Shown here: piece by piece, positions 12,830 to 28,837 of the stretch
How the letters are laid out: the number at the start of each line of letters is the position of its first letter
Position numbering within the stretch: the stretch's first letter is position 1
Assembly: GCA_045110515.1 (NCBI GenBank)
Contig: JBGCGD010000004.1
Location: forward strand, 89,033-153,032
Direction of reading: 5' to 3'
DNA length: 64,000 bases
DNA from: Granulosicoccus sp.
Lineage (GTDB): Bacteria > Pseudomonadota > Gammaproteobacteria > Granulosicoccales > Granulosicoccaceae
Notes under the pieces: model-generated
Seen by the model: only the letters and a program-made list of their open reading frames with translations
What the model was told of the DNA's origin: nothing
The model's database searches: none
Made by a program: the position numbers and the translations under genes

Positions 12830-12911
12830 CATCAACGTCAGCTCGCCCAATAAATATTATTAACTTAATATTGAGGGTAAACTGTACCGGTCTGATTACA
12901 GGAAAAGACAG

Positions 12912-13652
12912 GTGAAACAACCAATCTATTTGGGCGTAAACGTTGACCATGTGGCAGCGGTAAGACAAGCGAGAGGGCTAAGCTACCCAGACCCTGTCCA
13001 TGCTGCCTTGCAAGCAGAGCTTGCCGGTGCTGACAGCATCACCATGCACCTACGGGCGGACAGACGACATATCCAAACCCATGACGTAGAAAGGTTTGCT
13101 GCAAGTGGCCAAACAAAGCTCAACATTGAAATGGCCGCAACAGCGGAAATGCTTGAAATCGCACAAAGAATAAAACCTCACACGGTCTGTATCGTCCCCG
13201 AAAACCGTCAAGAAATAGATACCATTCGAGGGGTAGACGTCACAGCCAAAAAAGATGAACTCTCCGACTTTATTGATGCATTGCAGTCCGCTGGCATTCA
13301 AAGTTCTATTTTCATCGATCCTGATGAATCACAAGTAGAAGCCGCTGCGCGAATTGGAGCGCCCTGTGTTCAATTACACACGGGCTATTATACCGACACG
13401 CAAACTCATATAGATCTCAGCACTGAGTTATCGAGAATCGTGACATCAAGCGAGTACGCTTTCAGCTTAGGCTTAATGGTTAATGCGGGGCATGGCTTGC
13501 ATTATGACAATGTGCAAGCCATCGCAGAAATTGAAACTATCAACGAACTACGCGTCGGACATAGTTTAATCACCAGGGCACTTTACTGGGGCCTTCCGAC
13601 AGCAACCAGTAAAATGAAACGACTCATGGTCGAAGCCCGGCATCGATCCTAA
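12912..13652 (+). CDS. pdxJ: Pyridoxine 5'-phosphate synthase (divergent active site)
   Basis: LGVNVDH, YPDPV, HLRxDRRHI, NIEMA and NAGHGL; upstream of acpS. Several conserved residues are substituted (see findings). Confidence 0.88.
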   Translation: MKQPIYLGVNVDHVAAVRQARGLSYPDPVHAALQAELAGADSITMHLRADRRHIQTHDVERFAASGQTKLNIEMAATAEMLEIAQRIKPHTVCIVPENRQEIDTIRGVDVTAKKDELSDFIDALQSAGIQSSIFIDPDESQVEAAARIGAPCVQLHTGYYTDTQTHIDLSTELSRIVTSSEYAFSLGLMVNAGHGLHYDNVQAIAEIETINELRVGHSLITRALYWGLPTATSKMKRLMVEARHRS

Positions 13653-13694
13653 GCAATGAACATCACTGGTTTTCTTGTTTAACAGACTCCCACT

Positions 13695-14075
13695 ATGATT
13701 GCAGGAATTGGTGTTGACCTAGCAACTATCAGCAGAATCGAACAAGCCCATGTTCGTTTCGGTGAACGGTTTGCTAAGCGTATATTAAACCCACTTGAAT
13801 GGGACGAGTACTTAGACCATCAGTCCCCTATCCGCTTTCTGGCGAAACGTTTCGCCGTGAAAGAAGCTTCAGTTAAAGCGCTGGGAACGGGCGAACGAGC
13901 AGGTGTACTACTTAGGGACTTTTACCTTAAACACGATAGTCTTGGAAAACCGATACTTCAGGTTAGCGGTGAAGCAAAGAAGCGCTGCGAACAACAAGGC
14001 ATCAAACATTTCTGGGTGAGCATAACCGACGAAGGCGACACTGTAGCCGCCTTCGTCATCTTAGAACTGGGTTAA
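13695..14075 (+). CDS. acpS: Holo-ACP synthase
   Basis: GIGVDL, LAKRFAVKEASVKALGTG, GKP and SITDE motifs. Confidence 0.94.
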   Translation: MIAGIGVDLATISRIEQAHVRFGERFAKRILNPLEWDEYLDHQSPIRFLAKRFAVKEASVKALGTGERAGVLLRDFYLKHDSLGKPILQVSGEAKKRCEQQGIKHFWVSITDEGDTVAAFVILELG

Positions 14076-14080
14076 AAGAG

Positions 14081-15016
14081 CTACTGCGCAGCCTGATAAA
14101 CCCGAATGTAGTCAACACGTGTAGATGCCGGACTAGGCGTTGTCCCGTCAGGTGCGCCTGGCCAAATACCACCGACTGCCAAACTCATAATCAGGTACAT
14201 GTTCTGACTGCTAACGTTCTCCCCAACAACACGATACCTTGGAACATCGTTGATATAAAACAGCAGTTCCTGTGGTGCCCATGCTACACCCACTTTTTGA
14301 AAGCCTTCTGAAAAATCTGTCGATGAGATTTCCCATTGTCCAGGTGAACGCAGATTCCCATCAGCATCGGTGTAGTTATAATTGTGGAACAAACTATTGG
14401 GCTTTGCTCCATCGTATTCCATGATGAACAACTCTGGCTTCAAGTTATCAAAGTCGGTGCTGAGCATCCAAAACGCCGGCCATAACCCTCTGCCCTCTTG
14501 CAGCTCTATAGAGGCTTCTACATAACCGTAGGTAAAATCAAACTTCCCAGCAGTGGTTAACGCTCCAGACAACCAGGCTTGTTCGTTTGCCGCACTTCTG
14601 AGAGCATCTGGGGTTTCGGTCGCTGTGATCGTTAAATACTCACCATCGAGACTGAAAGGGTTATAACCAAAGTCAGCGTTATTTTGAGTGTCCACGTAGT
14701 ATTGCTGCTGGTTGTAAACCACCAGATCCGTACCCCACGTCAACGCAGTATTCCATTTTGACGCATCGAGGCTATCGCTTTGAAACTCGTCACTGAACAC
14801 CAAGTTGAAGTCAGTCAGGTCAAAAGCTGTTGACGGTCGATCAGGATCAGTGGCTGGTTCTTCATCGCCGGCGGTCGGCTGCGCCGCAGCAAAACGTGCC
14901 GCCGCTAGTTGTCGTTCGTGCTGCTCAACGAGATCGCTTTCACCACAGGCGCTTAATAATAAAGTTGTGCCAAGCAATGCGGGCAACCAAGACACGACGT
15001 GTATTGGATTGTTCAC
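14081..15016 (-). CDS. GH16-family lipoprotein with non-canonical catalytic motif ELFIME
   Basis: Lipobox LSAC; LVFSDEF, TYGYVE, WPAFWML and VDYIRVYQ; ExsH/laminarinase-like pattern. Confidence 0.85.
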   Translation of the reverse strand: MNNPIHVVSWLPALLGTTLLLSACGESDLVEQHERQLAAARFAAAQPTAGDEEPATDPDRPSTAFDLTDFNLVFSDEFQSDSLDASKWNTALTWGTDLVVYNQQQYYVDTQNNADFGYNPFSLDGEYLTITATETPDALRSAANEQAWLSGALTTAGKFDFTYGYVEASIELQEGRGLWPAFWMLSTDFDNLKPELFIMEYDGAKPNSLFHNYNYTDADGNLRSPGQWEISSTDFSEGFQKVGVAWAPQELLFYINDVPRYRVVGENVSSQNMYLIMSLAVGGIWPGAPDGTTPSPASTRVDYIRVYQAAQ

Positions 15017-15030
15017 TATGCATATCCTCC

Positions 15031-16812
15031 TTAATAGTAATAACGAATGCCTAGACCAAGCAAATCGTTATCGCCGAGTTCAAAGCGTGATACGACATCT
15101 AAGTGCGGTGTCAGGTGCCAGTACGCACCACCAAAGGCTTTCAAATCTCCCTTAAAGAAGGTGCTGTAGCCTAAACCACCTCGTAGTTCCATCTGGCGAT
15201 TGATAACCATTCGTGTTGCCGCGCCAAAATACAAGCCGGAACTTCCATAGTTCACCGAAATACTGGAATCTTGATCGTCTTCGAGTTGAAACGTCCCGTG
15301 CTCGACGCCTGCCTGCAACACCATCGTAAAACGGTCTGCAACACGGGGGGTCAAGTACATGCCTCCGCCAATCATCACTTCTTGATAGGTGTTCGTGACC
15401 GCGACGCGTCCAACATAGTGGAACCGGGAGTGACTCTCCGTACTCCCTTTCACAACGACACCATTCCCGCCAACATCAAAATTGGCGGGCATTGCTTCAA
15501 CGTAGGAAAATTTATCTTCTCTGCTTCTAACACTAGCCGGAAGCTTCAGGGCGGATAATACCCCTACTTGCGACACACTGTTTTCAGTCGCTGATTTTTG
15601 CAATTCATCGTTGGCCGCAGCGACTTGCTCTAGGGTGTTTATCACAGGTAAGTCAGCCTCAGCAACAACTGCCTCTTTCTTCACCTGGGGTTTAACCACA
15701 ATAGTTTCAGAGCTTGCCGCAATTGTTGGCAACAATTCTGATTTTTTAATCGCAGACAACTCTGTAGCCGGGTTTGTTGCAGGTTCTGGCAACACAGGTT
15801 CACGGGGGATTTGATTGCGGCTATCACGAATTGGCACATTAGCCTTCGGCGATGCCGAAGCCACTGGTTCAGTGACGGTAAAACTTTTATCTTTCGGCTT
15901 TTTTAAAACGGCAACCTTTTTGGTTTTCGCAACGCCGTTAACTCCATCTACGGCTTTACTCGTTTTTTTCTTTGGATTACCAAATTGCCGTCTGTAAAGA
16001 TCTTTAGGCGGAATGCTACCATCATCGAGCAAGTAGACTTTGCCATCGAGAATAATCTTAGACCCGGGCTTACCCCCTTTAGCTGGAATATCGTCCCTGG
16101 CCTGCATGTAACGTTTACCTTCAATGGTTATCACTTTTCCCGTGAACGGTGGAAGCGTTTCCTTCTTAGCTAAATCAGGTTCGGTGGTTAAAGCCTTGCT
16201 GACAACTGAGTTTTTTTCAGGCTTCTGATCTTTCGCTGTGTCGGAGGGCTTTTGAACTGTCACCGATATGACGACAGGTTTTTCAGAGTCGCTATTATTC
16301 TTCGATTTAGCAATCTCAGCTGCGAGCTTGGCAGCACCCTGAAGCTGTGTTTTGGCAACCTGCTTGTCTTTGGTGATCGCCCCAGAATCAGAGCTTGGTT
16401 GAGCAACCTTAGGTTTTTCAGCTTTCGGATTCTTCGCAAACGCCGATTTAAGATCCCACTGAGCCCCCGAGGGGTTATCTGAAGTATTGCTTAGGGTTAT
16501 TTCACCTTTAAACGGACCGTGTCCACATTGAGGATCTTTGTAAACCGGGTAATTAAACTCACCATTTTTCTCAATTAACCCCGGCCCTGCGCCAATACGT
16601 TTACACACTTGCGCAACCGTTTGTCCACCAATAGGCGTTGGCACTATCGTGTTCATGATATCAGCGCCCAGCTCCCCCACACAGTAGCACTGGCCATCTG
16701 TCGAATAGCTACCACTCCATTGCGAAGCATGCGATGGAGACAACAAGAGATGAGCGCCGATAAACAACGCTAACGAAGATTTGACTATGTGCGGCCGCAT
16801 TTGCGATTCCAA
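15031..16812 (-). CDS. Exported protein: 4-Cys N-terminal domain, K/P-rich linker, C-terminal outer-membrane beta-barrel
   Basis: Signal peptide (…SHA|SQW); C-Y-C…C…C domain; low-complexity linker; last ~170 aa are alternating amphipathic strands ending LGLGIRYYY. Confidence 0.65.
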   Translation of the reverse strand: MESQMRPHIVKSSLALFIGAHLLLSPSHASQWSGSYSTDGQCYCVGELGADIMNTIVPTPIGGQTVAQVCKRIGAGPGLIEKNGEFNYPVYKDPQCGHGPFKGEITLSNTSDNPSGAQWDLKSAFAKNPKAEKPKVAQPSSDSGAITKDKQVAKTQLQGAAKLAAEIAKSKNNSDSEKPVVISVTVQKPSDTAKDQKPEKNSVVSKALTTEPDLAKKETLPPFTGKVITIEGKRYMQARDDIPAKGGKPGSKIILDGKVYLLDDGSIPPKDLYRRQFGNPKKKTSKAVDGVNGVAKTKKVAVLKKPKDKSFTVTEPVASASPKANVPIRDSRNQIPREPVLPEPATNPATELSAIKKSELLPTIAASSETIVVKPQVKKEAVVAEADLPVINTLEQVAAANDELQKSATENSVSQVGVLSALKLPASVRSREDKFSYVEAMPANFDVGGNGVVVKGSTESHSRFHYVGRVAVTNTYQEVMIGGGMYLTPRVADRFTMVLQAGVEHGTFQLEDDQDSSISVNYGSSGLYFGAATRMVINRQMELRGGLGYSTFFKGDLKAFGGAYWHLTPHLDVVSRFELGDNDLLGLGIRYYY

Positions 16813-16996
16813 GGGCGTAAGTTCTCGTTAAAGCGAAACAGAAAACATGCCATCACATTGCCAACGCATTAAAGCATGACCGGATTCGAATTCCGATGCT
16901 AATCCATCAAGGCTTCAACCGAGGTTCCGATAACTACCTAATAGTGGTTGAACACGAGGTTTACGACCTCGACAACACGCCGAGTAACGCACAGTT

Positions 16997-18781
16997 ATGT
17001 GCGACAACTCACACAACGGACTGCCTTCGGTATCAACAATGAATCACGCTAAATTCACAGAGAAAGGTCGGGTTACTTGCCTATGGCATGTTCCCGTATC
17101 TGTTGTTTTGCTGTCGTTTTTGAGCGCGTGCGCTGATGGCACTACCAGCGATGCAACGAGCTCGAATGCGACAGGCTCAACTGCGGTTGCAGGCCCTTCG
17201 GTGAGCGCCGCTCAGCTGTCCAACGATGCAAGTTACTCGATTGCGTTTGCGCAGGCCGTTGCTGCTGGCGATATAGAGGCCCCAGATCCGCTTCAGCCAG
17301 CTAGCGCTAACCCGAATATCGGTGCGGCCAACCCCGATACGACCGAGCCTACGGACACTCCAGACAACGCTGTCTCAGTTCCTAGTGTTGAAAATTCAGA
17401 GCAAGAAGAATCCTCTTCAGGTACCGACACGAATTCGGAAACATCACAACCGAACTCTGAGACAACCTCAAATAGTGATTCAGAATCTGACACCGACTCA
17501 ACCACTGAATCCAATCCGGATGCATTGCAATTACCAGAAGAGCCCAGCAGCACCGGTGAAGATACAGGCACTGAACCGGATGCAGGCGTCAGCGAGGAAG
17601 CACCACCCACAACCGAATTTTTCTCCGCTACAACTCCTGGTTTTAATGGTGAGATATTGGATGATTCTATTCGCGTAACCTGGCCTGTTGATCCCAATGC
17701 CCGCGGATATAACGTTTACAGACAAGCCCAGTTCGTGACCTCGGTATTTACCGAAGAATACATTGATGAGGATGTCTTCGACCGCGACTACTATTACGAG
17801 ATTCAAGCTTTCGACAATTCAGATACCCTCTACTATGTGGCAACCGGTCTTACCGTAAAAGCGCGAACCTTCGGACACATAGATCCAGAAGCACCCGTGC
17901 CGAATAACAACTTGTTAGATGACTACCAACTTGTTTTCTCTGATGAGTTTAACGGCGATTCTCTCGACACCAGTAAATGGAATACAGCGTATTTGTGGGG
18001 AACCGACCTTGTTATTAATAGCGAGGAACAATACTACGTCGATATTGCGAACGAGCCCGACTTCGGCTTCAATCCGTTCACATTCGATGGCAATAACCTC
18101 ACTATTAATTCCATTGAAACACCGCCAGAGCTTGCCAGCAAATCGTTGAATCAACCTTATTTATCCGGCGTAATTACAAGCTATGACGCTTTTAAGTTCA
18201 CTTACGGTTATGTTGAAACTCGTGCAAAAGTCACTTTCGGTAGAGGGTATTGGCCCGCGTTCTGGCTGCTTAATGCCTACTATGTAGACGATAAACCCGA
18301 GATTGATATCATGGAATTTATCGGGAACGACCAGGATGTTGTTTACCATACGTACCACTACTACGATTCGGAAGGGCAGCTACGCTCCACCGAGTCTAAA
18401 CCAACACCCGGTGTCGACTATACATCTGACTTTCATACCTACGGTGTGGAATGGAAACCGGGCACGCTAATTTTTTATATCAACAATGTAGAAGTGCATC
18501 GAGTAACGGATGCAAAGGTATCTCAACAAGAAATGTATGTCATCGCTAATACTGCCTTAGGCGGATGGTGGGCGGGATCGCCAGATGCGACTACACCTTT
18601 TCCGGGGAAGTACACACTGGACTACATTAGGGTCTATCAAAAGACAACCCCCTATGACGACGTTCTGCTTGATGATGGTTTAACTCAAGTACCTTATGCA
18701 GACGATATCATTGGAAGAGCGTCTCCAAGTCATCGCCCTTCTATCGAAGATTGGCCCGAAGGCTACCCTGACGGTCTATAA
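16997..18781 (+). CDS. GH16 glycoside hydrolase lipoprotein with acidic S/T/E linker and FN3-like domain
   Basis: LSAC lipobox (start possibly ATG 17039); VTWP…ARGYNVYR…YYYEIQAFD FN3-like segment; intact EIDIME, WPAFWLL and LDYIRVYQ. Confidence 0.88.
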   Translation: MCDNSHNGLPSVSTMNHAKFTEKGRVTCLWHVPVSVVLLSFLSACADGTTSDATSSNATGSTAVAGPSVSAAQLSNDASYSIAFAQAVAAGDIEAPDPLQPASANPNIGAANPDTTEPTDTPDNAVSVPSVENSEQEESSSGTDTNSETSQPNSETTSNSDSESDTDSTTESNPDALQLPEEPSSTGEDTGTEPDAGVSEEAPPTTEFFSATTPGFNGEILDDSIRVTWPVDPNARGYNVYRQAQFVTSVFTEEYIDEDVFDRDYYYEIQAFDNSDTLYYVATGLTVKARTFGHIDPEAPVPNNNLLDDYQLVFSDEFNGDSLDTSKWNTAYLWGTDLVINSEEQYYVDIANEPDFGFNPFTFDGNNLTINSIETPPELASKSLNQPYLSGVITSYDAFKFTYGYVETRAKVTFGRGYWPAFWLLNAYYVDDKPEIDIMEFIGNDQDVVYHTYHYYDSEGQLRSTESKPTPGVDYTSDFHTYGVEWKPGTLIFYINNVEVHRVTDAKVSQQEMYVIANTALGGWWAGSPDATTPFPGKYTLDYIRVYQKTTPYDDVLLDDGLTQVPYADDIIGRASPSHRPSIEDWPEGYPDGL

Positions 18782-18804
18782 AGAGTGAGCTCAGAGGCTG
18801 CAGT

Positions 18805-19422
18805 TTATGCAGTCTCAAACGGCTCTAAATAGAATCCAAACGTCCTCACTAAAATTTCAAACGCCGCTGACATGAGCTCTTCCCTATCCGGCTCTCCAAT
18901 GGCATAGAGTCCAACGGTGTATCCTAGACCGCTTATTTGTGCTTGATAGATCGTTAAGTCAACGTCCTGCACCCCGGTCTCAGTCGCTTTTATATCCAGC
19001 ATATCAATCCATGCGGGACGCCCATCTATCGAGACATCTATGCGGTTACTGCCATCGGTTTCAAAAGCACCTGAATCACTACCCGGTAATATCTCGATCA
19101 TGATGTAATCGGCGAAGAGGTCGGAATCACCATTCCTGGGCGCTTCAAATCCAACGGTATATCCTGGCTCAAGCACACTGAAGTCATCGGGCTGAACCGC
19201 GACTATTTTACTCCAGCCTGCAGGAATGGCGACGCTGAAACCATAGTCATCATCCTCGTAGTATTCAATATCCATGAGGAGCTCAACCGATGACTCCAAT
19301 GCAACATGGCTGCTGTCAGCATTGGCTGTTTTAGCAGGAAACGGATAGCTTGTCACCAATGCTGAAGCGCAAAAGCCCAAGATCAGTGGCACAAGGAGTA
19401 CAGGTCTCATGCTCTCAAGCAT
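18805..19422 (-). CDS. Exported hypothetical protein, PsbP/DcrB-like fold suspected
   Basis: N-terminal hydrophobic segment; YYEDDDYGFSVAIPAGW resembles the start of PsbP-like domains. Confidence 0.45.
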   Translation of the reverse strand: MLESMRPVLLVPLILGFCASALVTSYPFPAKTANADSSHVALESSVELLMDIEYYEDDDYGFSVAIPAGWSKIVAVQPDDFSVLEPGYTVGFEAPRNGDSDLFADYIMIEILPGSDSGAFETDGSNRIDVSIDGRPAWIDMLDIKATETGVQDVDLTIYQAQISGLGYTVGLYAIGEPDREELMSAAFEILVRTFGFYLEPFETA

Positions 19423-19530
19423 GCCTACTATGGGAGTTCGATTCCGAGAGCGGTGACTCAGAACGGTTATATCGCCACTAATCTGTAATACGCAAACTCA
19501 CCAATCGGGGTGAGTGAAATCTCAAAGACT

Positions 19531-21726
19531 CTAAACCTGGCAAACGTCACCAACACCGTCGTTGTCGGTATCTAACTGATCAGCATTGGCGACAGCGGGG
19601 CAATTATCGTCAGCGTCTGCGACTAAATCACCGTCACTATCAAGTAACGTGTCACACACGTCACCCGTACCGTCACCGTCTGTATCTAACTGATCGGCAT
19701 TGGCGACTGCGGGACAATTATCATCAGCGTCAGCAACCGTGTCACCGTCGCTATCTGTCAACACGTCACAGGCATCACCAATACCATCACCGTCTGTATC
19801 AGTTTGAGCGGCATTGGCATCATTTGGACAGTTGTCAACGGCATTTAGCACGCCGTCGCCATCTAGATCTAAACCATTAGTCGTGTCGCAGACGTCACCT
19901 ATTCCGTCGCCATCTGTATCTGTCTGATCCGCATTTGCATCTACGGGGCAATTGTCATCTGCGTCAGCAATTAGATCGCCGTCACTGTCAGTCAACGTGT
20001 CACAAGCATCGCCGATACCATCACCGTCAGTGTCGGTTTGCGCAGCGTTGGCATCATTTGGGCAGTTATCAGCAGCGTTGTCTATTCCATCATTGTCTAA
20101 ATCAAGACCGTTGGTTGAATCACAGACATCACCTATTCCATCGCCGTCCGCATCTGCTTGATCGGCGTTTGGAATAGCCGGACAGTTATCAGCCGGATTG
20201 TTTACAGAGTCGTTATCCGGATCCAGACCATTGGTCGGATCACAAACGTCACCGATACCGTCACCATCGACATCAGCCTGATCACTGTTTGCATCGGTAG
20301 GGCAGTTGTCCAGGGGGTCATTAACATTATCGCCATCGGGGTCCAAGCCATTAGTTAAATCACAGGCATCACCGATTCCATCCCCATCAACGTCTGCCTG
20401 ATCACTATTGGCATCGGTTGGGCAATTATCTGCAGGATCATTGACACCATCATCATCTGGGTCCAGACCGTTTATTGCATCGCATACGTCACCTATGGAA
20501 TCACCATCAACATCGTTTTGATCGGCATTAGAGATGGCCGGACAGTTATCTACGGCATCTCTGACTCCATCGCCGTCAGAATCTGTGTCGTCAGATAAAT
20601 CACACAGATCACCAAGACCATCATTGTCAATATCCGCTTGATCAGGGTTCGCGCGTGCTGGACAGTTATCTACATCGTTGTTTACACCATCACCATCCGT
20701 GTCGTCATCGTTGATGAGATCACAAGCATCGCCCGCCCCATCATTGTCGATATCAGCCTGATCCGGATTCGAATTGGTTGGACAATTATCAGTCTCATCC
20801 GGGATGCCATCATTGTCTTCATCCTTAGGAGGATCCTCAGCATCCAGTGCATCAGTGCCCTGCGCAGTTTCCTGTATGTTGCTCAGTTCGTCGTCGTCAC
20901 TGTTGTAGCTATCGGTCTCATAATCGTTCTCTCCAATGACAACCGTTGTGCCACCACCCGCGTTCTGATTACGCGAAACATGTGCGATAAGCAGCGTTTG
21001 TTCCGTAGTCGAATAAAAATTAACATCGATAAGCGGATCGGAGTTTTCAGTGACTGTGACGCTACCTTGCCAGTCATTACCTTCACGCGTTAGCAAGACA
21101 GGCGTCCCGTTAACAGTAGCGGTTGCATCCACAGCCGCTTTACGTTCTTCGGTCGCATCAACCATCTCGACGGGTAATTTCAGTTGAACAACCAAATTCA
21201 CGAGTACTGGTGGTGCTATGGGCGACGTCGAGTCGTTGAACAAAAAACCTTCGCGACGTTCTTGAAGATTGGAATACCCGTCGCCGTCCGCATCCATAGA
21301 CGTATCGAATTCAGTGAACCTCAACAATACAGGGCTTGAAACAGATCCGACATTTAGCGGCTTACTTGCACGGGCCAGAGGTAGCTCCTCGCCCTCTAAA
21401 AGCTCTACCCATTCTATGGATACAACCGTTGAGGAAAGAGGCGGCAAGGTTGTTTGAAATACGTATTGGCCTTCGGCATCAGACTCGATTTCGAAAGTCT
21501 GTCCGTTGATCGTTACGCGCAGTCTAAGATTCGGTCGAATAATAGTTCGTGATTGCAGCAGTATGTCTGGTGCGGTGAATGCCATGTTGGCCATCCCATC
21601 TGCAACACCGACCGTGTTGGTATCATCCTGCTGATTGCAGCCGGAAACAAACGAAAGCACTGTTGCCAATAATACTGCACTAAACAGTCGAGACAACAGC
21701 CGTTTGAAACGTCCTTGATTCATCAT
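19531..21726 (-). CDS. Thrombospondin type-3 repeat lipoprotein
   Basis: Lipobox VSGC; two related ~120-aa N-terminal modules; 11 DxDxDG…DNCP…NxDQxDxDxDGxGDxCD units. Confidence 0.9.
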   Translation of the reverse strand: MMNQGRFKRLLSRLFSAVLLATVLSFVSGCNQQDDTNTVGVADGMANMAFTAPDILLQSRTIIRPNLRLRVTINGQTFEIESDAEGQYVFQTTLPPLSSTVVSIEWVELLEGEELPLARASKPLNVGSVSSPVLLRFTEFDTSMDADGDGYSNLQERREGFLFNDSTSPIAPPVLVNLVVQLKLPVEMVDATEERKAAVDATATVNGTPVLLTREGNDWQGSVTVTENSDPLIDVNFYSTTEQTLLIAHVSRNQNAGGGTTVVIGENDYETDSYNSDDDELSNIQETAQGTDALDAEDPPKDEDNDGIPDETDNCPTNSNPDQADIDNDGAGDACDLINDDDTDGDGVNNDVDNCPARANPDQADIDNDGLGDLCDLSDDTDSDGDGVRDAVDNCPAISNADQNDVDGDSIGDVCDAINGLDPDDDGVNDPADNCPTDANSDQADVDGDGIGDACDLTNGLDPDGDNVNDPLDNCPTDANSDQADVDGDGIGDVCDPTNGLDPDNDSVNNPADNCPAIPNADQADADGDGIGDVCDSTNGLDLDNDGIDNAADNCPNDANAAQTDTDGDGIGDACDTLTDSDGDLIADADDNCPVDANADQTDTDGDGIGDVCDTTNGLDLDGDGVLNAVDNCPNDANAAQTDTDGDGIGDACDVLTDSDGDTVADADDNCPAVANADQLDTDGDGTGDVCDTLLDSDGDLVADADDNCPAVANADQLDTDNDGVGDVCQV
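19534..20823 (-). repeat. 11 tandem coding repeats of 38-40 aa (TSP3 Ca2+-binding)
   Basis: 11 DNCP occurrences counted in the translation; degenerate at DNA level. Confidence 0.9.
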
Positions 21727-22322
21727 GGTAGTTGATCCACTACGACAGTTACGGGCACGCCAGCACTAGAGCTACCTCCTCCGCCAGCTGCAGACGCCAG
21801 CACACCAACCACTAACAGTCCTACTGCGCCATAAAGTAGTTTTCGGTTAAACGATATACCCGATGTTTCAACCGGCTCATTAGTCACTTGTGCCACAGGT
21901 GTCTTCGGTGTAACTAATTGTCGCTCTATAGGGTCAAACGCGAAACCTTGTAAGGCTCGATTACCGGCGCTATCAAAGGCTTCGATGTAATACTGGATAA
22001 ACGTTGCAGCGGGTGGTAACTCTTCGCTAGAAACGGTCGCTGTGTAAATACCACTATTACCTAGTATGTTTAGCTGGCGCTTCAGATACGGTGTTGATTC
22101 AGCAAAGCGGTAATACAAGGTAACGCTGCCAATTTCTGTGTTGTCCGCCACCGAGGCTGCAAATACCTGACTGTCTCCGGCATTGCCAGAGGAGACAGCC
22201 TCGAACTCTATAACAGGCGGTTCAATATCCGCTGACTGCGCATTAACCACACCTGGCATGGAGAACAGCTGCAGGAAGGTGATGAGCATCACCACTAAGC
22301 GTTTGCTAACGTTATCTAACAT
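21723..22322 (-). CDS. Exported Ig/FN3-like protein with C-terminal hydrophobic helix and Gly/Ser tract
   Basis: Signal peptide ending VNA|Q; DIEPPVI…VADN…VTLYYR…QYYIEAFDSAGN beta-sandwich pattern; LLYGAVGLLVVGVLASAAGGGGSSS. Stop overlaps the next ATG. Start reassigned to 22322. Confidence 0.6.
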   Translation of the reverse strand: MLDNVSKRLVVMLITFLQLFSMPGVVNAQSADIEPPVIEFEAVSSGNAGDSQVFAASVADNTEIGSVTLYYRFAESTPYLKRQLNILGNSGIYTATVSSEELPPAATFIQYYIEAFDSAGNRALQGFAFDPIERQLVTPKTPVAQVTNEPVETSGISFNRKLLYGAVGLLVVGVLASAAGGGGSSSAGVPVTVVVDQLP

Positions 22323-22357
22323 AAAATTTGAATTACCTGATGGCGAGTATTCAACGC

Positions 22358-24370
22358 TTACCAACTAATAGCTGACCAATCATTGCCGTCGCGGCTACTG
22401 ATCAAACGAATTGACTGCATATCGGAAGGCGGCACAGCGAGGCTACCGTCAGCCCTCTCAATGGATTTAATCTGCAGCGTTCCATTGATCTCACCAGTCG
22501 CATCACTCGTGGACACATTGCGGATTCGTACATCAATGCCAACGCTGTTTTCAAACACCTGCATAAATTGTTGAACACGCAGTCCCGAACGCTTCGTCAA
22601 ACTGACGACCTGTCCAATGTCTCGACTGCTGATCGCTTTCTGTAAATCTGTAAATTTTTTGTAAACCGTTTGGAGATCGTCGTCAGTGATTGCACGGGGA
22701 GCTACGTTGACCACACTTGTATTGTTTTCAAAACCTTCCGTTGATTGTGATTTAGCCACTGCAACGGCGTTGCGATTTTGGGTCCGGCTCGCAGCCTGAG
22801 CAGCTGCAGCGTTTGCTGCCTCTATCTCGCGTACGCGTGCTAGTCTTTGCTCTAAGACAGTACGTCGCTCTGCAGCCGCTCTTTCGTTGGCAATACGTCT
22901 ATCTGTTGCGATACGATCGGCTTCGGCTATTTGTCGTCTGGCCTCTTCCCTTGCAGTTTCTTCTAACGCATCCAGGCGAATTTTTTCGGCCCTCGCAGCC
23001 GTAAGTTCCGAAGCGGTTCGAGCTTGTTGTCGTTGCTGTAGTCTGGCCGCTTCTGCGCGAGCGGCTTCTGTCGTGGCGGCTTCATCAGCAGCGGCTCTAG
23101 CTTGCTGCCTGGCTTCTTCAGCAGCGGCTTCAACACTATCGCGTGACTGCTGGCGCGCTAATGCTTGTTCTTGCGTAGCTAGCAGCCTCTGCTCTTCCAG
23201 ACGAGCCGCTTCATCGGCTGCAGCCTGCGCAGTCTGTCGCTGTACATTCAAACGTTCTTGTTCTGCAGCCAGTTGTTCAGTCCGACGCACTTCCGCCAAT
23301 CGAGCGGCCTCTATCGAAGCGACTCGGGCAGCTTCCGCTTGGCGACGATCTTCTTGCCTTGCAGCCTCAGCCACTTGCGAAGCCTGAAGCTGAACGGCAG
23401 CCTCATTTTTTAATTCTGCAATGTTGGCCTCAATGGCTTGGAATTCAGAAGCGCCGTACCCGTACAACGTTCTATCCATGGAATTCAACGCTCGCTCAGC
23501 ATCAGCATAGGCCCCGCTACTAACAAGAGCTTCCAACGCCGCTAACTGTTCGCGAAATTGCACCATGAGAGAAGACGGTTCTGCAAGGTTTCCTGCACTA
23601 TCAGGAGCCACGTCACTCAGCGCCGTGTTAGTGTCGGCAACAGCGGGCTCTACCTTTGCCTCCACTACCCCCGTATTTTCATCATTCTCAACCGTTGCGT
23701 TTAATGATGAGGGCAGTTCGCCGCGCTGAGTTTCTGACAAAAACTCATCATCGAACGCCAGTTCAGTTTGCGAATGGATGAGCTGGTCTAGTTTCCCCGA
23801 AAAATAAAGGTAACTAACTCCACCCACTATCAACAAGGCTGCAGTACCTAGGGCGAACCATCTGATCAAACTTTCTTTTGGATCTTCGTCAGGCTGATCA
23901 AAAGTGGTTGCCACCCCTTCACGCCAGTCGTTACCGAAATCCAGTTCATTACGATTGCCACGTTTAAGTGAACTGAACTCCTTCTCAAGTTCTATGTCCT
24001 CATCATTGGCAGGCGACTGCGTCGGTGGACGTACGTTGCTCTGTCGATTTCGTGCAGTCCGCTTTTTCTTGACCGGACGAAGGTCAGGAGCACTTAAAGT
24101 AGTGTCTTCGAGAAAATCTAAGTCGTCTACATTTTTAGCATGCTTAGCCGTCGTAAGCGGTGGCGGAGGTGCTACAGGATCTCCGGGTTTCGGTGGTAGA
24201 AGAGGTCCAGATTTTGAAACCGGTACGGGTGGTCTGATGGTAGGCATGGTCCTACGCATGGACTTTTTAGCTACTTTTCTGCGAGCAGTTTGCTCCTCGT
24301 CGCCTTCTGAAAGGAAGTCGAACATGGACTCGTGGTCCGGTTTGTTACGATCGAATTCTGGTTTCGACAT
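22358..24370 (-). CDS. Bitopic inner-membrane protein with TolA-like Ala/Glu/Arg coiled coil and globular C-terminal domain
   Basis: ~165-aa charged/Pro-rich N-terminus, one TM (WFALGTAALLIVGGVSYLYF), ~200-aa A/E/R/Q helix and ~110-aa C-terminal alpha+beta domain. Confidence 0.65.
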   Translation of the reverse strand: MSKPEFDRNKPDHESMFDFLSEGDEEQTARRKVAKKSMRRTMPTIRPPVPVSKSGPLLPPKPGDPVAPPPPLTTAKHAKNVDDLDFLEDTTLSAPDLRPVKKKRTARNRQSNVRPPTQSPANDEDIELEKEFSSLKRGNRNELDFGNDWREGVATTFDQPDEDPKESLIRWFALGTAALLIVGGVSYLYFSGKLDQLIHSQTELAFDDEFLSETQRGELPSSLNATVENDENTGVVEAKVEPAVADTNTALSDVAPDSAGNLAEPSSLMVQFREQLAALEALVSSGAYADAERALNSMDRTLYGYGASEFQAIEANIAELKNEAAVQLQASQVAEAARQEDRRQAEAARVASIEAARLAEVRRTEQLAAEQERLNVQRQTAQAAADEAARLEEQRLLATQEQALARQQSRDSVEAAAEEARQQARAAADEAATTEAARAEAARLQQRQQARTASELTAARAEKIRLDALEETAREEARRQIAEADRIATDRRIANERAAAERRTVLEQRLARVREIEAANAAAAQAASRTQNRNAVAVAKSQSTEGFENNTSVVNVAPRAITDDDLQTVYKKFTDLQKAISSRDIGQVVSLTKRSGLRVQQFMQVFENSVGIDVRIRNVSTSDATGEINGTLQIKSIERADGSLAVPPSDMQSIRLISSRDGNDWSAISW

Positions 24371-24539
24371 AAGCTACGAGTCAATGTGATTCAGATACAA
24401 CGTGTATCACAGTTTTTTGGATTAGCATGCTCCAATGATAAACGATATGGGAGCGTCAATAACCGGTAATAGTGTGATGTTACAACGGTTTGCGGCATAA
24501 TTTCCGATATGGTAATCCGCAAACTGGGACATTGGGTGG

Positions 24540-25073
24540 CTATTCGACGCTAAGCCGCAAGCTCCAGGTCTCGGCTGCTAAACCCAAAGGCTGCGATTCA
24601 GGCAGCAAAATAGTCACTGAAGCTGCCTCCGACGGCCCTGTCGCAAGCCATGCACCGGACGTTAACGCCGTTCGCGATGCCTCAATACCGTTAATGTGAG
24701 TCGGTGAATGCACCACGCGAGGGTCTGGGAGTAAGGTCTGTGCAATCTGCTGCCCGTCAGAGTTTTTCCAAACGAGCCTGACAAATGTATCGATTCCCTG
24801 GATACTTCTTCCAGAGGCCGGATACACGCTAGCACTGGCAATAGAGCGACCGCGTGCGATTGGCGCTGAACCAATAGTGGGTTGCGATATTTTGGCCGAA
24901 ATACTCGCAGAGGAACTCAGCTCAGTTGATTTAGCTAACCGCTCCTCTGGTGCTACGGGAAACAGGCGATGCAAGAAATGACCAGACTCATCAAAGCGAA
25001 TGAGCAGCCTCACATCGGCTGACGCTGTGTTTGAAATCAGCGAAATAGCTAGAAGCCAATACCACCTGTTCAT
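24540..25073 (-). CDS. Secreted hypothetical protein coupled to the M64 peptidase
   Basis: ATG at 25073 overlaps the M64 TGA (ATGA); signal peptide ending ASA|D; LVWKNSDGQQIAQTLLPDPRVVH. Confidence 0.65.
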   Translation of the reverse strand: MNRWYWLLAISLISNTASADVRLLIRFDESGHFLHRLFPVAPEERLAKSTELSSSASISAKISQPTIGSAPIARGRSIASASVYPASGRSIQGIDTFVRLVWKNSDGQQIAQTLLPDPRVVHSPTHINGIEASRTALTSGAWLATGPSEAASVTILLPESQPLGLAAETWSLRLSVE

Positions 25074-27124
25074 TCGACAACCACCTGCCATGTCCAATTG
25101 AAAATTCCCGCATGCGGTGCTGGAAGCTTGATTTTTCCACTGATATCACTGACACGCAATGCAACGGTGTGGGTACCCACAGGTGGCGAGAGCACAAGTC
25201 GATTAGGGTTATTGTCGGTAGCCGGCTGAGCGACACCGTTAAAGGTCCACTCAACCATCTGGACGTCATTACCGAATATGGGACTGACAATAAATTCCTG
25301 AGACTCTCCGGCATTAACCTGAATGATCTCGGTGTTGGGTGAAAAACCCCGAATGCCTTCTGTCAGGGAATATAAACGCAGTATCCACTGCTCGCTGTTA
25401 ACAGGGCCGAATGAGGCATCAAATGATCGCATCCGGCTGTTAAACGTCGGCCGAAAAATACCGCTTGCTCGATACAAACCACCTTCAAAGAGTCCAACGC
25501 CTGGCTCACCAAAGCTTTGTGGCAAGGGTACTGAGGGATCAATCCAGTGCGCCCAGGGCACAGCTGCGGGATCGGTCAGCGCCGTTACATTCTTATAACG
25601 CCCCTCTTGAAAAAGCTGTAGCCCAGATGTCTCTTCGATCAGGGTATCCACATACTCATCTGCAAGGTCGACAAGACTATGCCCCATCTCGTGAACAGCT
25701 ATCTCAGGAAAATAAGCGGACGTTATCGCAACACTTCCGCCACTGTTACCACTACCACCATATCGGCGATCGTTCACCAATAAGACGATTTGATCAACTG
25801 ACGGATACTCTCCCAATGCGGTTTCAAACATAGACAAGGTATTAGCGCAAATGAGCCTGAGAACGCCGCCACAGTTGTACGCGCTGTCGAAAGCTGTGTC
25901 TCTGCTATCAACGTTTTCATTGTCATCGGCCCCCGAACTCGCAGATACCGTGTTGATCATATGTATATTAAACGCACCGAGATGGCTGCCGATTCCTTCG
26001 TCTGCACGAATACTGGCAATAGCATCATCAACATGTTCACGAAACAAAGCTTGTTGATCTATCGAATAGCCATCGCCCAAGGCAACCACATGCACGCCCC
26101 TGCCTTGCTTACTCCCTAACAAGGTTCTGCCCGCACCAGATGCGGTTAGTGGGTACAACGTTATAGGCACGATTTCACGGCTGGTTGTTCCTTGTCGATC
26201 GCGTGCCGTTATAACAAGGTTGACGTTTGTGACATCGTTAACATCGGCAGCGATTAAGGTGATTGAACCCGCATTGACCTCGCTATTAATAAAATCATTG
26301 CTTTCAACGCTTATGGTGACCTGATCGCCGTCTAAATCATCAGGAAACACCTGCGCTGTTACGCGCTCTCTTGCGTTGAGTTCAACCGGCAATTGAGTGA
26401 TGTTCAGCGTTGGTGGATCGTTTACATCGATGACTTCGAAACGCACTCCGCTCACCTCGGTGAATAATCCTTCAGGATCGGTTACGCGGAAAGTGATATC
26501 GCCACTGAAACCGACATCAGTCTGGCTTGGCTGCCCCACCAACAGCCCGCTCGTCGCGTTAAGACTTAGCCAGGACGGGAGCCCATTTGCGCTATAACGC
26601 AGATCCGAGTCATCAACATCCGTCGCAATCAATTGAACTTGAAAGTCACGCCCTTGTTCGGCAACCCGCGGAATGTCAGCGGACAAGACTGGCGCATCAT
26701 TGACCGACGAAATGGTGAGTTCGACATTGACCTCCTGCCCGTCAAAACTGATGTAAGTAAACGCATCTTCACCGAAGTAGTCGTCAGCAACTGTGTACAA
26801 AAAAACCTGCCCCTGTGCTTGTAGGGTCAGCACTCCCTGCGCAGGCAAGGAGCGTATCGTTACAGGCCCCTCAGGCGGATCGTCGCCTGAATAAAATCTG
26901 CCTCGTAGCAATGTGTCCTCATTGAGAGCAAAACGCTGAACAGCCGCACCACTTTCACGAAAACTGAGTTGTGAGCTTATGATTTCCTCATTGCTACCGG
27001 CGAAATCATCGGTAGGAGGAGAAATGATACTGCTACCCGAGTCACAAGCTGTGAGCACGACACAGCACGCTGCAATGATTGCAGCCTGCGGTGATCGGGT
27101 AAATAGGTGAAGTATCCCTTTCAT
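25070..27124 (-). CDS. M64 (IgA peptidase-family) zinc metallopeptidase lipoprotein with Ig/cadherin-like repeats
   Basis: Lipobox LTAC; NDAP/NDPP cadherin-like and GLPSWL…SG He_PIG-like domains; LGDGY, YGGSG, HEMGHSLVDLADEY and GLFEGG…FRP…SRM M64 motifs. Confidence 0.87.
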   Translation of the reverse strand: MKGILHLFTRSPQAAIIAACCVVLTACDSGSSIISPPTDDFAGSNEEIISSQLSFRESGAAVQRFALNEDTLLRGRFYSGDDPPEGPVTIRSLPAQGVLTLQAQGQVFLYTVADDYFGEDAFTYISFDGQEVNVELTISSVNDAPVLSADIPRVAEQGRDFQVQLIATDVDDSDLRYSANGLPSWLSLNATSGLLVGQPSQTDVGFSGDITFRVTDPEGLFTEVSGVRFEVIDVNDPPTLNITQLPVELNARERVTAQVFPDDLDGDQVTISVESNDFINSEVNAGSITLIAADVNDVTNVNLVITARDRQGTTSREIVPITLYPLTASGAGRTLLGSKQGRGVHVVALGDGYSIDQQALFREHVDDAIASIRADEGIGSHLGAFNIHMINTVSASSGADDNENVDSRDTAFDSAYNCGGVLRLICANTLSMFETALGEYPSVDQIVLLVNDRRYGGSGNSGGSVAITSAYFPEIAVHEMGHSLVDLADEYVDTLIEETSGLQLFQEGRYKNVTALTDPAAVPWAHWIDPSVPLPQSFGEPGVGLFEGGLYRASGIFRPTFNSRMRSFDASFGPVNSEQWILRLYSLTEGIRGFSPNTEIIQVNAGESQEFIVSPIFGNDVQMVEWTFNGVAQPATDNNPNRLVLSPPVGTHTVALRVSDISGKIKLPAPHAGIFNWTWQVVVE

Positions 27125-27154
27125 ATCATCGTAGACTTTTTCGCCTAGCTAGGC

Positions 27155-28012
27155 TTACAAGTCTTGATGTTCTAAAGCAGTTTGAATGTAGATTTTTCGT
27201 AGCTCTGTACTGACAGGTCCCGGCTTTCCATTACCTAGTGGAACCCCATCAATGTTGACTACTGGCATAACAAACGTCGAGGCACTGGTGATGAACGCTT
27301 CGCTAGCCTGTCTGGCCTCCTCGATACTAAAGGGTTCTTCAACCACCGTGTACCCTGCCTGGGATGCAAATTTAAGAACGGTTTGTCGAGTGATACCGCT
27401 AAGAATTTCATGACCTAATTGTCGAGTTTGGATCTTTTTATCAGCTGTGACAATGTAGGCATTGTTTGACGTACCTTCGGTTACCAAACCGTTTTCAACC
27501 ATCCACGCATCGTGGACTCCCGCGTCAACAGCGGCCTGTTTGCCCATGCAAGGAGCGAGCAAACCGACGGTTTTTATATCCCGTCTTTTCCAACGCTGAT
27601 CTTCGATAGAAATAATATGCAACCCTTGCTCAGCCATTGGCGACTCAAGCAGGTTTTTAGCTTGCGTGAACATCACTAACGACGACTTGGCATTGGCCGG
27701 GTATGCAAAATCCCGATCGGCTACGCCCCTTGAGACCTGAAGGTATAACAGGCCTTCATCAAGATTGTTCATCTCCACAAGTTTTAATTGGGCGGCGACT
27801 ATATCTTCATCGGAGCAAGGAGGTGCCATCGCCAGCTCAGACATTGACCTGGACAATCGCTTTAAATGTGCAGCATTGTCGATTAGTCGACCTTTTAATA
27901 TCGTGGACACTTCATACACAGCGTCTGCGAATAAAAAGCCACGATCAAGAACCGAAATTTTCGCGTCCTCTTCAGCTACAAAATCACCATTTACATAAAA
28001 CGTTCGATTCAT
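27155..28012 (-). CDS. dat: D-amino-acid aminotransferase (class IV PLP enzyme)
   Basis: DRGFLFADAVYEV, YLQVSRG, RRDIKTV (PLP Lys), EGTSNN and ILSGITR. Confidence 0.88.
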   Translation of the reverse strand: MNRTFYVNGDFVAEEDAKISVLDRGFLFADAVYEVSTILKGRLIDNAAHLKRLSRSMSELAMAPPCSDEDIVAAQLKLVEMNNLDEGLLYLQVSRGVADRDFAYPANAKSSLVMFTQAKNLLESPMAEQGLHIISIEDQRWKRRDIKTVGLLAPCMGKQAAVDAGVHDAWMVENGLVTEGTSNNAYIVTADKKIQTRQLGHEILSGITRQTVLKFASQAGYTVVEEPFSIEEARQASEAFITSASTFVMPVVNIDGVPLGNGKPGPVSTELRKIYIQTALEHQDL

Positions 28013-28079: not shown

Positions 28080-28793
28080 TCACTGCTGAAAAAGAGTGAC
28101 GACGTCTGGTATTGCCTGAACCTCGTAATCCGGCGGTTTCAAATGCTCAGGCCAGTCCTGATTATACGGGTTGAACCACAAAGTCTGCACTCCAACAGCA
28201 CCAGCGCCGTAAACATCTGTTACGGGATTGTCGCCGATATGAAGCAGGGAATCGGGGGAAATTTTCATATCTGCGAGGCATTGCTGGAACATATCGGGGG
28301 CCGGCTTCTCCAAGAGTGTCAAATTAGCGGCATATATTCGCTCAAAATACTTCTCAATACCAATACTTTGTAAATCGGCGTTTCCGTTGGTGATCGCCGC
28401 TAGCCTAAATGTCTGATTCAACTGATCGAGCATACTGATCACACCTTCGTACAAAACCACCTCACTACGGGCTTTATAAAACACGGCAAACGCCTCTTCC
28501 GCCCATCCTTCCGGATATCCATACTCCAACAGGAGTATTTTCAATCCCTGCTTTCTGATGGCTGTGACACAGCGCGTAAGCTCTGGGTACGCAGCCCTCA
28601 CCTGTTTTCGGTGCTCCATTAACGATTCGGGGCTATGCACTTTGGTGATGGCTGGGGTCTTTTGTTTATGCCATTCGTACAGGGCTTTTTCAGCTTTTCT
28701 AATAGCCGGAGCGCAGTCCCACAGCGTGTCATCTAAATCAAATGAAATCGCTTGAATTCGCGAAAGCCTATTGGGCAATTGGTCTGGCGGCAT
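28080..28793 (-). CDS. HAD-family hydrolase (YigB-like)
   Basis: FDLDDTLW, ITNGN, KP and HIGDNPVTDV motifs. Start set at ATG 28793, which has an AGGA RBS; the longer ORF-track version overlaps the opposite-strand gene. Confidence 0.88.
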   Translation of the reverse strand: MPPDQLPNRLSRIQAISFDLDDTLWDCAPAIRKAEKALYEWHKQKTPAITKVHSPESLMEHRKQVRAAYPELTRCVTAIRKQGLKILLLEYGYPEGWAEEAFAVFYKARSEVVLYEGVISMLDQLNQTFRLAAITNGNADLQSIGIEKYFERIYAANLTLLEKPAPDMFQQCLADMKISPDSLLHIGDNPVTDVYGAGAVGVQTLWFNPYNQDWPEHLKPPDYEVQAIPDVVTLFQQ

Positions 28794-28823
28794 TTGGGGA
28801 TTCCTAAAGCGCGTGTATAGCGC

Positions 28824-28831
28824 ACTATAAT
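28824..28831. promoter_or_regulatory. Overlapping divergent -10 hexamers: TATAAT (+, 28826-28831) and TATAGT (-, 28829-28824)
   Basis: Lies in the 44-bp gap between divergent starts at 28793 and 28838. Confidence 0.55.
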
Positions 28832-28837
28832 GTGTCG

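Follow-up and report, generated by a model that had tools for sequence, protein, structure and literature searches.

A nine-gene envelope block in Granulosicoccus sp. appears to be a family-specific mosaic that includes a widespread g6–g5N cassette

The DNA analysed here is a stretch of 64,000 nucleotides from Granulosicoccus sp. (contig JBGCGD010000004.1, positions 89,033–153,032 of the forward strand), referred to below as the window. Between acpS and a class IV aminotransferase gene ('dat') it contains nine consecutive open reading frames (ORFs), numbered g1–g9 by position (14081–27124), with no further credible gene in between. On balance, this block appears to be a mosaic of three envelope sub-units that is specific to the Granulosicoccaceae, and not one nine-gene machine. 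Sub-unit A consists of g7, g6 and g5, with g4 as a lineage-specific rider, and represents the local form of a widespread, unnamed cassette. The constant core of this cassette would be g6, a protein with an immunoglobulin (Ig)-like domain, together with a lipoprotein that carries the N-terminal part of g5 (g5N); a g7-type third gene lies upstream in about a quarter of the lineages. The head of the lipoprotein appears to be swappable, being CBM9-like in ten sampled cases from outside the family, built from TSP3 repeats here and a large repeat protein in one lineage. Sub-unit B, with g3 on one side and g2–g1 on the other, looks like a surface unit for the cutting and binding of beta-glucan. Sub-unit C is formed by g9 and g8, a translationally coupled M64 lipoprotein and its small secreted partner, and is dispensable. 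On the surfaces of kelp and other macroalgae, Granulosicoccus is a dominant coloniser and, to our knowledge, little has been established on how it recognizes or uses the polymers of its hosts.

Outside the family only the linkage of g6 with g5N survives, sometimes accompanied by a g7-type gene. Distant homologues of g6 (30–35% identity) lie in unrelated genomic contexts, and a tblastn search of these loci with the nine proteins matched g6 alone and none of the other eight. A first reading of this search, that nothing stays linked, was overturned when the neighbouring genes were read by eye and compared using profiles. In two of the distant loci (L015 and L025) a lipoprotein gene directly follows the g6-like gene, and over its first ∼160 residues, which run from the lipobox to the motif DxDxDGxSNLxE, its product aligns to the g5 N-terminus (BLASTP E = 7e-14 for L015). 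In both cases the C-terminus is a CBM9-like domain, which takes the place of the TSP3 repeats. Locus L017 encodes a 1194-residue lipoprotein with a g5N module two genes upstream of g6 (E = 6e-4), L026 has a g5N–CBM9 lipoprotein near g6 (hhalign probability 98.3%) and in L028 and L029 a g5N lipoprotein gene adjoins the distant g6 as well.

A different g6 subgroup was used to seed a metagenome scan, and the ORFs of the 80 loci obtained were searched using hidden Markov models (HMMs) for g6, g5N, the kinase discussed below and g7C, the conserved C-terminal domain of g7. The metagenomic g6 genes fall into 39 clusters at ∼70% identity, 37 of which were testable for g5N and 26 for g7C. A g5N lipoprotein gene adjoins g6 in 36 of the 37 clusters, in 33 of them directly downstream and on the same strand, and a g7C-type gene is found upstream in six of the 26 (two with a kinase and four kinase-less ones of the Granulosicoccaceae type); given the composition of the survey, to which we return below, these fractions are indicative only. 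CBM9_1 was present in all ten partner lipoproteins sampled from other clusters. In contrast to g5N, genes for g4, g2, GH16 proteins, g8, M64 and dat accompany g6 cassettes in Granulosicoccaceae-type loci and never elsewhere. A functional link within the g6–g5N pair is well supported. The window itself contains the complete pair: g6 shows the expected architecture in alignment A1, in its structural model and in a library search, and the ATGA-overlapped g5 has the lipobox, the beta-rich module and DxDxDGxSNLxE.

The g6 protein starts with a signal peptide, which is followed by the Ig-like domain, a hydrophobic helix, a Gly/Ser-rich stretch and a C-terminal 'VPVTVVVDQLP' strand (alignment A1). 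Its AlphaFold2 model is an Ig-like beta-sandwich with a predicted local distance difference test (pLDDT) score of ∼90 in the core, and the closest solved fold picked up by Foldseek is the Ig-like domain of the peptidylarginine deiminase of Porphyromonas gingivalis. The g6 profile retrieves 5735 library representatives at E <= 1e-3. Giant adhesin-like proteins contain up to 35 tandem copies of the same type of Ig domain, and at least 50 of the top 150 matches (clusters at 50% identity) are proteins of ∼200 residues that share the g6-type tail. This tail (21723–21860 in the window; P0174–P0278) consists of a basic residue, a hydrophobic helix of ∼18 residues, a Gly/Ser/Asp-rich stretch and a 'vPlTitV' strand, often with a proline at the end.

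Such a tail invites the alternative that g6–g5N is a surface-display or sorting device for a variable lipoprotein head, working via the g6 tail or via g5N and with g7 as an occasional assembly factor. We consider this unlikely. The tail is indeed very conserved across these clusters, displayed cargo typically combines a constant N-terminal module with exchangeable heads, and the tandem Ig domains of the giant adhesin-like proteins would fit the same picture. However, the possibility that the tail is a known C-terminal sorting signal of the PEP-CTERM or GlyGly-CTERM kind was examined and rejected, as there is no match in NCBIfam and the order of the elements is reversed: in PEP-CTERM, GlyGly-CTERM and LPXTG signals the motif precedes the helix. 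The recurrent fusion of g7C to a kinase, moreover, argues for signalling in at least some lineages.

In g5, the part that is conserved outside the family is g5N, which comprises the lipobox and two copies of a beta-rich module (two HMM domains), each ending in the invariant DxDxDGxSNLxE (alignment A5). The module contains a single Ca2+-loop motif and is presumed to be a beta-sandwich. A profile homology search with g5N returned only five short matches, and sequence and profile searches of the PDB gave nothing significant. The C-terminal part contains 11 Ca2+-binding, Cys-containing TSP_3 repeats (Pfam E = 1.5e-89), and its units are encoded by DNA tandem repeats of 114–120 bp at 19564–20514 (Tandem Repeats Finder). 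The g5 orthologues vary from 522 to 1076 residues, in agreement with a variable number of such repeats. The repeat number is evolutionarily unstable, and in L009 an extra ORF of 317 residues follows a shortened g5.

The g7 protein is composed of ∼165 cytoplasmic, Pro-rich residues, one transmembrane (TM) segment, a predicted helix of ∼300 residues rich in Ala, Arg, Gln and Glu, and the g7C domain of ∼112 residues (22361–22696). The cytoplasmic part (23870–24370) is disordered and retains two motifs in all orthologues, MSKPEFD...SMFDFL and P.IRKPVPVS.SGPL (alignment A9), which may be docking sites that replace a missing kinase domain. Kinases do occur at this position in other lineages. The gene immediately upstream of g6 in L017 and L023 encodes a transmembrane Hanks-type Ser/Thr kinase, and the corresponding gene in L024 ends in the C-terminal domain of the L017 kinase group, with the end of the contig cutting it before any kinase domain. 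In L026 an 816-residue protein encoded 70 nt upstream of g6 combines a Pkinase domain (E = 9e-39) and a TM segment with a helix that resembles that of g7 (rich in Ala, Arg, Glu and Gln) and a g7C-like C-terminus, the latter matching g7C with a BLASTP E of 2e-15 and 34% identity over 112 residues up to the last residue. In L027 the profiles of g7C (1.6e-26) and of the kinase group (6e-9) both recognize the C-terminal domain of the upstream protein. Compared directly, g7C and the C-termini of the L017 kinase group give a result that is suggestive at most (BLASTP E = 1.2; hhalign probability 24–29%), and it is the intermediates L026 and L027 that bridge this weak comparison and connect g7C to the kinases. 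The kinase–g6 arrangement recurs in L017, L023, L026 and two metagenomic clusters, whereas no Pkinase domain is present in g7 of the window or in the three Granulosicoccaceae orthologues that were tested. As judged from these sequences, g7 is related to membrane Ser/Thr kinases but lacks the kinase domain. Its g7C domain has no match in Pfam even at E <= 10, none in NCBIfam and no significant one in the PDB. In L026 a gene for an adenylate/guanylate cyclase with an FHA domain (3045–3932) lies two genes upstream of the kinase gene, across the g5N–CBM9 lipoprotein gene, a hint that the output in this lineage could run from phospho-Thr to a cyclic nucleotide.

The preliminary description, made from the sequence of the window, had called g7 TolA-like. 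This holds for the architecture: like TolA and TonB, g7 has an inner-membrane anchor, a long Ala-rich and charged helix that could cross the periplasm and, at its C-terminus, a small globular domain, and, as for TolA, a lipoprotein gene follows. It does not extend to homology, as neither TolA_C nor TonB_C is matched and the neighbours are unrelated (no tolQRB–pal or exbBD genes). In addition, g7 differs from TolA in its 165-residue cytoplasmic extension and in having homologues that carry kinase domains.

Anatomy, homology, linkage frequencies and the condition of the catalytic motifs are observed here; a physical complex, the cellular location of each part, the ligands and any functional coupling between sub-units A, B and C are inferred. 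In this model g6 and g5N would form a membrane-anchored complex that presents a ligand-binding head, the ligand being Ca2+ or a glycan. The long helix of g7 would allow g7C to reach this complex across the periplasm and, in the kinase-bearing lineages, the complex would signal into the cell. The kinase-less version in the window is more likely to serve as a scaffold or tether, or its conserved cytoplasmic motifs could recruit a partner through which it signals. In its mode of working, the closest known analogue would be the TagQRST–PpkA–Fha1 pathway of the H1 type VI secretion system (H1-T6SS) of Pseudomonas aeruginosa, in which a transmembrane Hanks kinase receives its input from a protein of the outer membrane and a partner in the periplasm (PMC7817224). 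In relatives of the cassette a transmembrane Hanks kinase is likewise found together with a lipoprotein and a periplasmic Ig protein, to which L026 adds the FHA cyclase. Membership of this pathway is not claimed: no homology was detected, the cassette has no T6SS genes, no TagS/T ATP-binding cassette (ABC) components and no PppA, g7 of the window is kinase-less and most cassettes have no g7-type gene.

A more far-reaching proposal is that g6–g5N(–g7) constitutes an unrecognized trans-envelope ligand-sensing system of marine Gram-negatives, made of a lipoprotein with an exchangeable head, an Ig-like adaptor and either a receptor kinase or a kinase-less scaffold, and that in the Granulosicoccaceae this system is wired to a laminarinase-like GH16 enzyme, a barrel-anchored, GH16-derived glycan binder and an M64 protease, with which it would sense and process surface polymers of the host alga. 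We regard this as a doubtful, low-probability extension of the model. What is new is an unnamed cassette of two to three genes in dozens of marine lineages, with g6, g5N and g7C matching no Pfam family and sometimes with a fused Hanks kinase. It offers a testable entry to the coupling of an outer ligand-binding lipoprotein to the inner membrane in Gram-negatives. Should the cassette be only structural, a useful annotation of three conserved hypothetical families would result.

Within the family, the block is strongly syntenic. A genome scan with the close g6 alignment A2 as seed gave 13 loci, all from Granulosicoccus or other Granulosicoccaceae except for one metagenome-assembled genome (MAG) labelled Halioglobus, and the named homologues of g6 and g2 include Granulosicoccus MAGs and isolates. 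Two more divergent loci (L020 and L021/22) were reached through homologues of g2. According to tblastn with the nine proteins and their flanks, the order HAD, dat, g9, g8, g7, g6, g5, g4, g3 (on the opposite strand), g2, g1, acpS, pdxJ is kept in all sufficiently long loci. The spacing is kept as well: g9 and g8 overlap, g7 and g6 are 12–56 nt apart, g6 and g5 overlap or are separated by up to 26 nt, and the g2–g1 gap is 2–22 nt. The genes g3 and g2 are divergent and 136–229 nt apart, and g4 and g3 are convergent. The preliminary description of a lineage-specific envelope cluster is thereby borne out, with order and tight spacing retained in every Granulosicoccaceae locus that is long enough.

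The same description had gone further and taken the nine genes for one integrated system, and we have weighed the corresponding possibility that they make up a single surface system acting on algal polymers or on the cell's own exopolysaccharide (EPS). We find this improbable. In its favour, the nine genes are contiguous and ordered in every long-enough family member while the flanks show insertions; the gaps are tight, a carbohydrate-binding module is present in the partner of the cassette outside the family, which makes a link to glycans plausible, and the source lineage is associated with algae or plants. However, the housekeeping flanks (sdhAB–pdxJ–acpS on one side and dat–HAD on the other) are conserved along with the block, and therefore synteny in the family reflects common ancestry and not necessarily common function. 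Strand and gaps point to at least three transcription units, namely g9–g8–g7–g6–g5–g4 (possibly starting from dat), g3 alone on the opposite strand, and g2–g1. The content is not fixed either: L020, the most divergent genome (dat 69% identical), has neither g9 nor g8, so that dat is directly followed by g7, L012 has two g5 genes and no detectable g8, and g5 is duplicated or resized. Outside the family no GH16, M64, g2, g4 or g8 gene lies near a cassette. The check on synteny and co-occurrence that the preliminary description had proposed therefore has a divided outcome, with order kept within the family and only g6–g5N, sometimes with g7, kept elsewhere. As the genes are unlinked in other lineages, with g6–g5 (sometimes g7) as the exception, the independent scattering named there as a refutation is largely what is found for the block as a whole.

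As to the insertions, a gene for a 430-residue tRNA-synt_His-like protein (hisS/hisZ-type) is inserted between g1 and acpS in L021 (12296–13588), and several genomes have ∼3 kb of additional DNA separating the HAD gene from that of the alpha/beta hydrolase. Insertions are thus tolerated on either flank of the block.

The opposite extreme would be that there is no coupling beyond the obvious pairs, and that unrelated envelope genes have been kept together by shared ancestry in a single family. All of the full-block loci are indeed in orthologous positions with the same flanks, and only g6–g5N is linked elsewhere. We nevertheless hold this to be very unlikely. Overlaps and short gaps in g9–g8, g7–g6–g5 and g2–g1 point to co-translation or co-transcription, and the genes evolve fast (25–55% identity for g8, g7 and g2), yet their order is never broken. 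A run of nine exported or membrane-anchored ORFs is also not expected by chance, because it is rare when the 44 ORFs of the window, 17 of which are flagged, are shuffled (P = 0.0009, i.e. ∼0.001) and because few of the remaining 35 ORFs are of this kind; these include one Tat-type exported protein, a CptA-like protein with a single TM segment, a membrane sensor and five polytopic subunits of the respiratory chain. For a genome of 5000 genes, 25–30% of which encode exported proteins, 0.01–0.07 such nine-gene runs would be expected.

A mosaic of three sub-units lies between these extremes and is the reading that we prefer. Several points weigh against it or against the model of the cassette. Co-location of the block is unbroken although identity of dat across the family is only 69–97%, which is compatible with sub-units A, B and C still cooperating in the Granulosicoccaceae, as they could. 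The contact between g6 and g5N and the bridge by g7C are deduced from gene linkage. The metagenome survey used one g6 subgroup as seed and many of its loci come from few marine studies, so that its proportions are biased. About three quarters of the cassettes have no g7-type gene, so that such a gene is not essential to the g6–g5N pair. In g6 the positive residues precede the hydrophobic helix and do not follow it, which is the 'wrong' side for a simple type I anchor and makes the topology of g6 uncertain. Some of the lipoprotein orthologues have an Asp at position +2 after the lipobox Cys, and sorting to the inner or outer membrane cannot be read from such sequences. Finally, a scan for promoters and terminators gave fewer matches than shuffled sequences, with consensus promoters between g2 and g3 not above chance, and no RNA run with the window sequence was found; the sequence is present in three DNA runs labelled 'plant metagenome'.

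In sub-unit B, g3 has a clear GH16 domain (PF00722, E = 6e-27, 94.7 bits with a cut-off of 22) and in the PDB it matches endo-beta-1,3-glucanases and laminarinases best (E = 1e-27 to 3e-28). The catalytic motif EIDIME (ExDxxE) is intact in the window and in all seven orthologues. A long acidic, Ser/Thr-rich linker is found at the N-terminus, and g3 is the sole gene of the block on the + strand. The protein is probably an active, laminarinase-like GH16 lipoprotein. In g1, which is 46–50% identical to the catalytic domain of g3 and also matches GH16 (PF00722, E = 4e-17, 62.7 bits with the same cut-off), the motif reads ELFIME in the window and EVYIME, ELYVFE, QLFVME or QLFIAE in orthologues, and does not conform to ExDxxE. 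None of the seven aligned lineages retains the auxiliary Asp, and in three of the seven (L012, L021 and L010) a Gln takes the place of the nucleophile Glu. These substitutions suggest that g1 is likely to be a GH16-derived binder of glycan, on the surface and for beta-glucan, rather than a cutter, and it is possibly held at the surface together with g2. By the look of its active site, g1 is a glycosidase turned pseudo-enzyme. In the Granulosicoccaceae-type metagenomic locus L088, two g3-like GH16 genes lie in tandem on the minus strand (12830–16205).

Among characterized GH16 proteins, g3 resembles laminarinases and the rhizobial glycanases of the EglC/ExoK type in its GH16 domain, its EIDIME motif, its PDB matches and a sub-threshold NCBIfam match to EglC. 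It falls short of EglC proper (148 bits against a cut-off of 700) and has low identity to characterized enzymes, and the pair differs further from these systems in that both g1 and g3 are lipoproteins, g1 lacks the catalytic Asp and there is no adjacent uptake system. A survey of kelp MAGs reported that laminarinase genes are missing from every genome of kelp-associated bacteria, with Granulosicoccus in the set (PMC9238374). The conservation of the laminarinase-like g3 suggests that annotation thresholds hid laminarinases in that survey, and the GH16 pair, one member intact and one degenerate and both found family-wide, is a candidate for closing this gap.

In g2 a conserved N-terminal domain with four Cys residues is connected to a C-terminal barrel of ∼160 residues by a long, disordered linker that is rich in Lys, Pro and Ala and includes one small conserved beta domain (alignment A8). 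In the AlphaFold2 model the C-terminus has ten strands (pLDDT ∼88) and ends in RYYY, and Foldseek matches it to KdgM, NanC, Pla, OmpA and OmpX (E = 7e-6 to 2e-4 for KdgM, Pla, OmpA and OmpX). Going by this model, the C-terminus of g2 is an outer-membrane (OM) beta-barrel. The Pfam match to OMP_b-brl is weak (18.3 bits with a cut-off of 28.7), four homologues have a precomputed match to PF13505, and PDB sequence and profile searches with g2 gave nothing significant. Most homologues of g2 are nameless; the named ones belong to Granulosicoccus or to an unclassified gammaproteobacterium, and every neighbourhood of a g2 homologue that was checked proved to be the same syntenic locus.

The block is reminiscent of SusC/SusD systems in that a surface glycanase of the lipoprotein type and g1, a putative non-catalytic binder of glycan, are encoded beside an OM beta-barrel protein. 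It differs in having no TonB-dependent transporter, no SusD and no sensor or regulator, and the barrel of g2 has about ten strands compared with 22 in the transporter. In agreement with the earlier view that this is not a polysaccharide-utilization locus of the SusC/D or TonB-dependent type, TonB_dep_Rec, Plug and SusD have no match in the nine genes or in ten flanking genes.

In sub-unit C, g9 matches the M64 family well above the gathering threshold (PF09471, E = 2e-35, 122.8 bits with a cut-off of 26) and has the zinc site HEMGH (HExxH). Its relatives in the PDB are the Bacteroides M64-like lipoproteins 4df9 and 3p1v, with which it shares its lipoprotein nature, and the family also includes the IgA peptidase of Clostridium ramosum. 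Unlike these, g9 carries additional N-terminal domains (Big_9, He_PIG and cadherin-like) and has a translationally coupled partner of no known family. This partner, g8, diverges fast and has no relatives outside the family; Pfam, the PDB and PADLOC gave no match. An origin of g8 as a duplicated piece of the M64 protein was considered and rejected, as g8 shows no similarity to g9. Both genes are absent in L020 and are therefore dispensable. The rider of sub-unit A, g4, occurs only in Granulosicoccaceae-type loci and always after g5 (alignment A7). It had been labelled PsbP-like, which stays a guess: no Pfam match is obtained at E <= 10, the PDB gives no match with either the single sequence or a profile, and an exact look-up of g4 from the window found no identical entry on record.

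The anatomy of the block is summarized in Table 1, for which the starts of g2 (M5, 16800), g6 (M15, 22322) and g8 (M9, 25073) were corrected. A sequence reading combined with a hydropathy and lipobox scan found a lipobox, signal peptide or membrane anchor in all nine ORFs, as the preliminary description had it. Of its domain calls, GH16 (g1 and g3), TSP3 (11 TSP_3 stretches in g5) and M64 (g9, with Big_9/He_PIG/Cadherin_4) were recovered by Pfam, and the OM barrel and the Ig-like domain by AlphaFold2 and Foldseek, so that glycanase-like, protease-like and Ca2+-binding-repeat proteins are indeed all present. Pfam found nothing in g2, g4, g6, g7 and g8, and NCBIfam gave sub-threshold matches only. 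The two ATGA overlaps reported earlier (g9/g8 and g6/g5) were read directly, as was the g7–g6 gap of 35 nt; the second gap below 40 bp, between g2 and g1, is 14 nt according to the ORF coordinates.

Table 1. Genes and intergenic region of the block, in window coordinates
Feature	Position	Strand	Description
g1	14081–15016	-	LLLSAC lipobox; GH16-fold lipoprotein
g2	15031–16800	-	Signal peptide, cleavage SHA|SQ; predicted C-terminal OM beta-barrel
g2/g3 intergenic region	16813–16996		184 bp, divergent; presumed promoters; 136–229 bp in orthologous loci
g3	16997–18781	+	FLSAC lipobox; GH16 lipoprotein, laminarinase-like
g4	18805–19422	-	Signal peptide, cleavage ANA|DS; 205-residue secreted protein
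g5	19531–21726	-	FVSGC lipobox; g5N at 20830–21726, TSP3 part at 19531–20829
g6	21723–22322	-	Signal peptide, cleavage VNA|QS; Ig-like domain, C-terminal hydrophobic helix
g7	22358–24370	-	No signal peptide; one TM segment, residues ∼167–190; bitopic
g8	24540–25073	-	Signal peptide, cleavage ASA|DV; 177-residue secreted protein
g9	25070–27124	-	VLTAC lipobox; M64 lipoprotein

On one side the block is flanked by sdhA, sdhB, a CptA-like gene, pdxJ and acpS, and on the other by dat and genes for a HAD hydrolase, an alpha/beta hydrolase and an Lhr helicase. In the nine genes and their flanks, searches with Pfam and NCBIfam detected no family of transporters, regulators or mobile elements. The earlier statement to this effect stands with one caveat concerning regulators, namely that g7, although kinase-less, is a relative of membrane Ser/Thr kinases. 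Rfam and the PADLOC defence models gave no match.

The dat gene (27155–28012) lies 30 nt upstream of g9 on the same strand (gap 27125–27154), a distance that is 10–76 nt in most orthologous loci, and it may be co-transcribed with the envelope genes. Of the adjacent 377-residue HAD ORF (28080–29213), only the last ∼236 residues match HAD hydrolases, and its 5' part overlaps the divergent alpha/beta hydrolase gene (28832–29659). This ORF is over-extended, and its long 5' part is probably non-coding.

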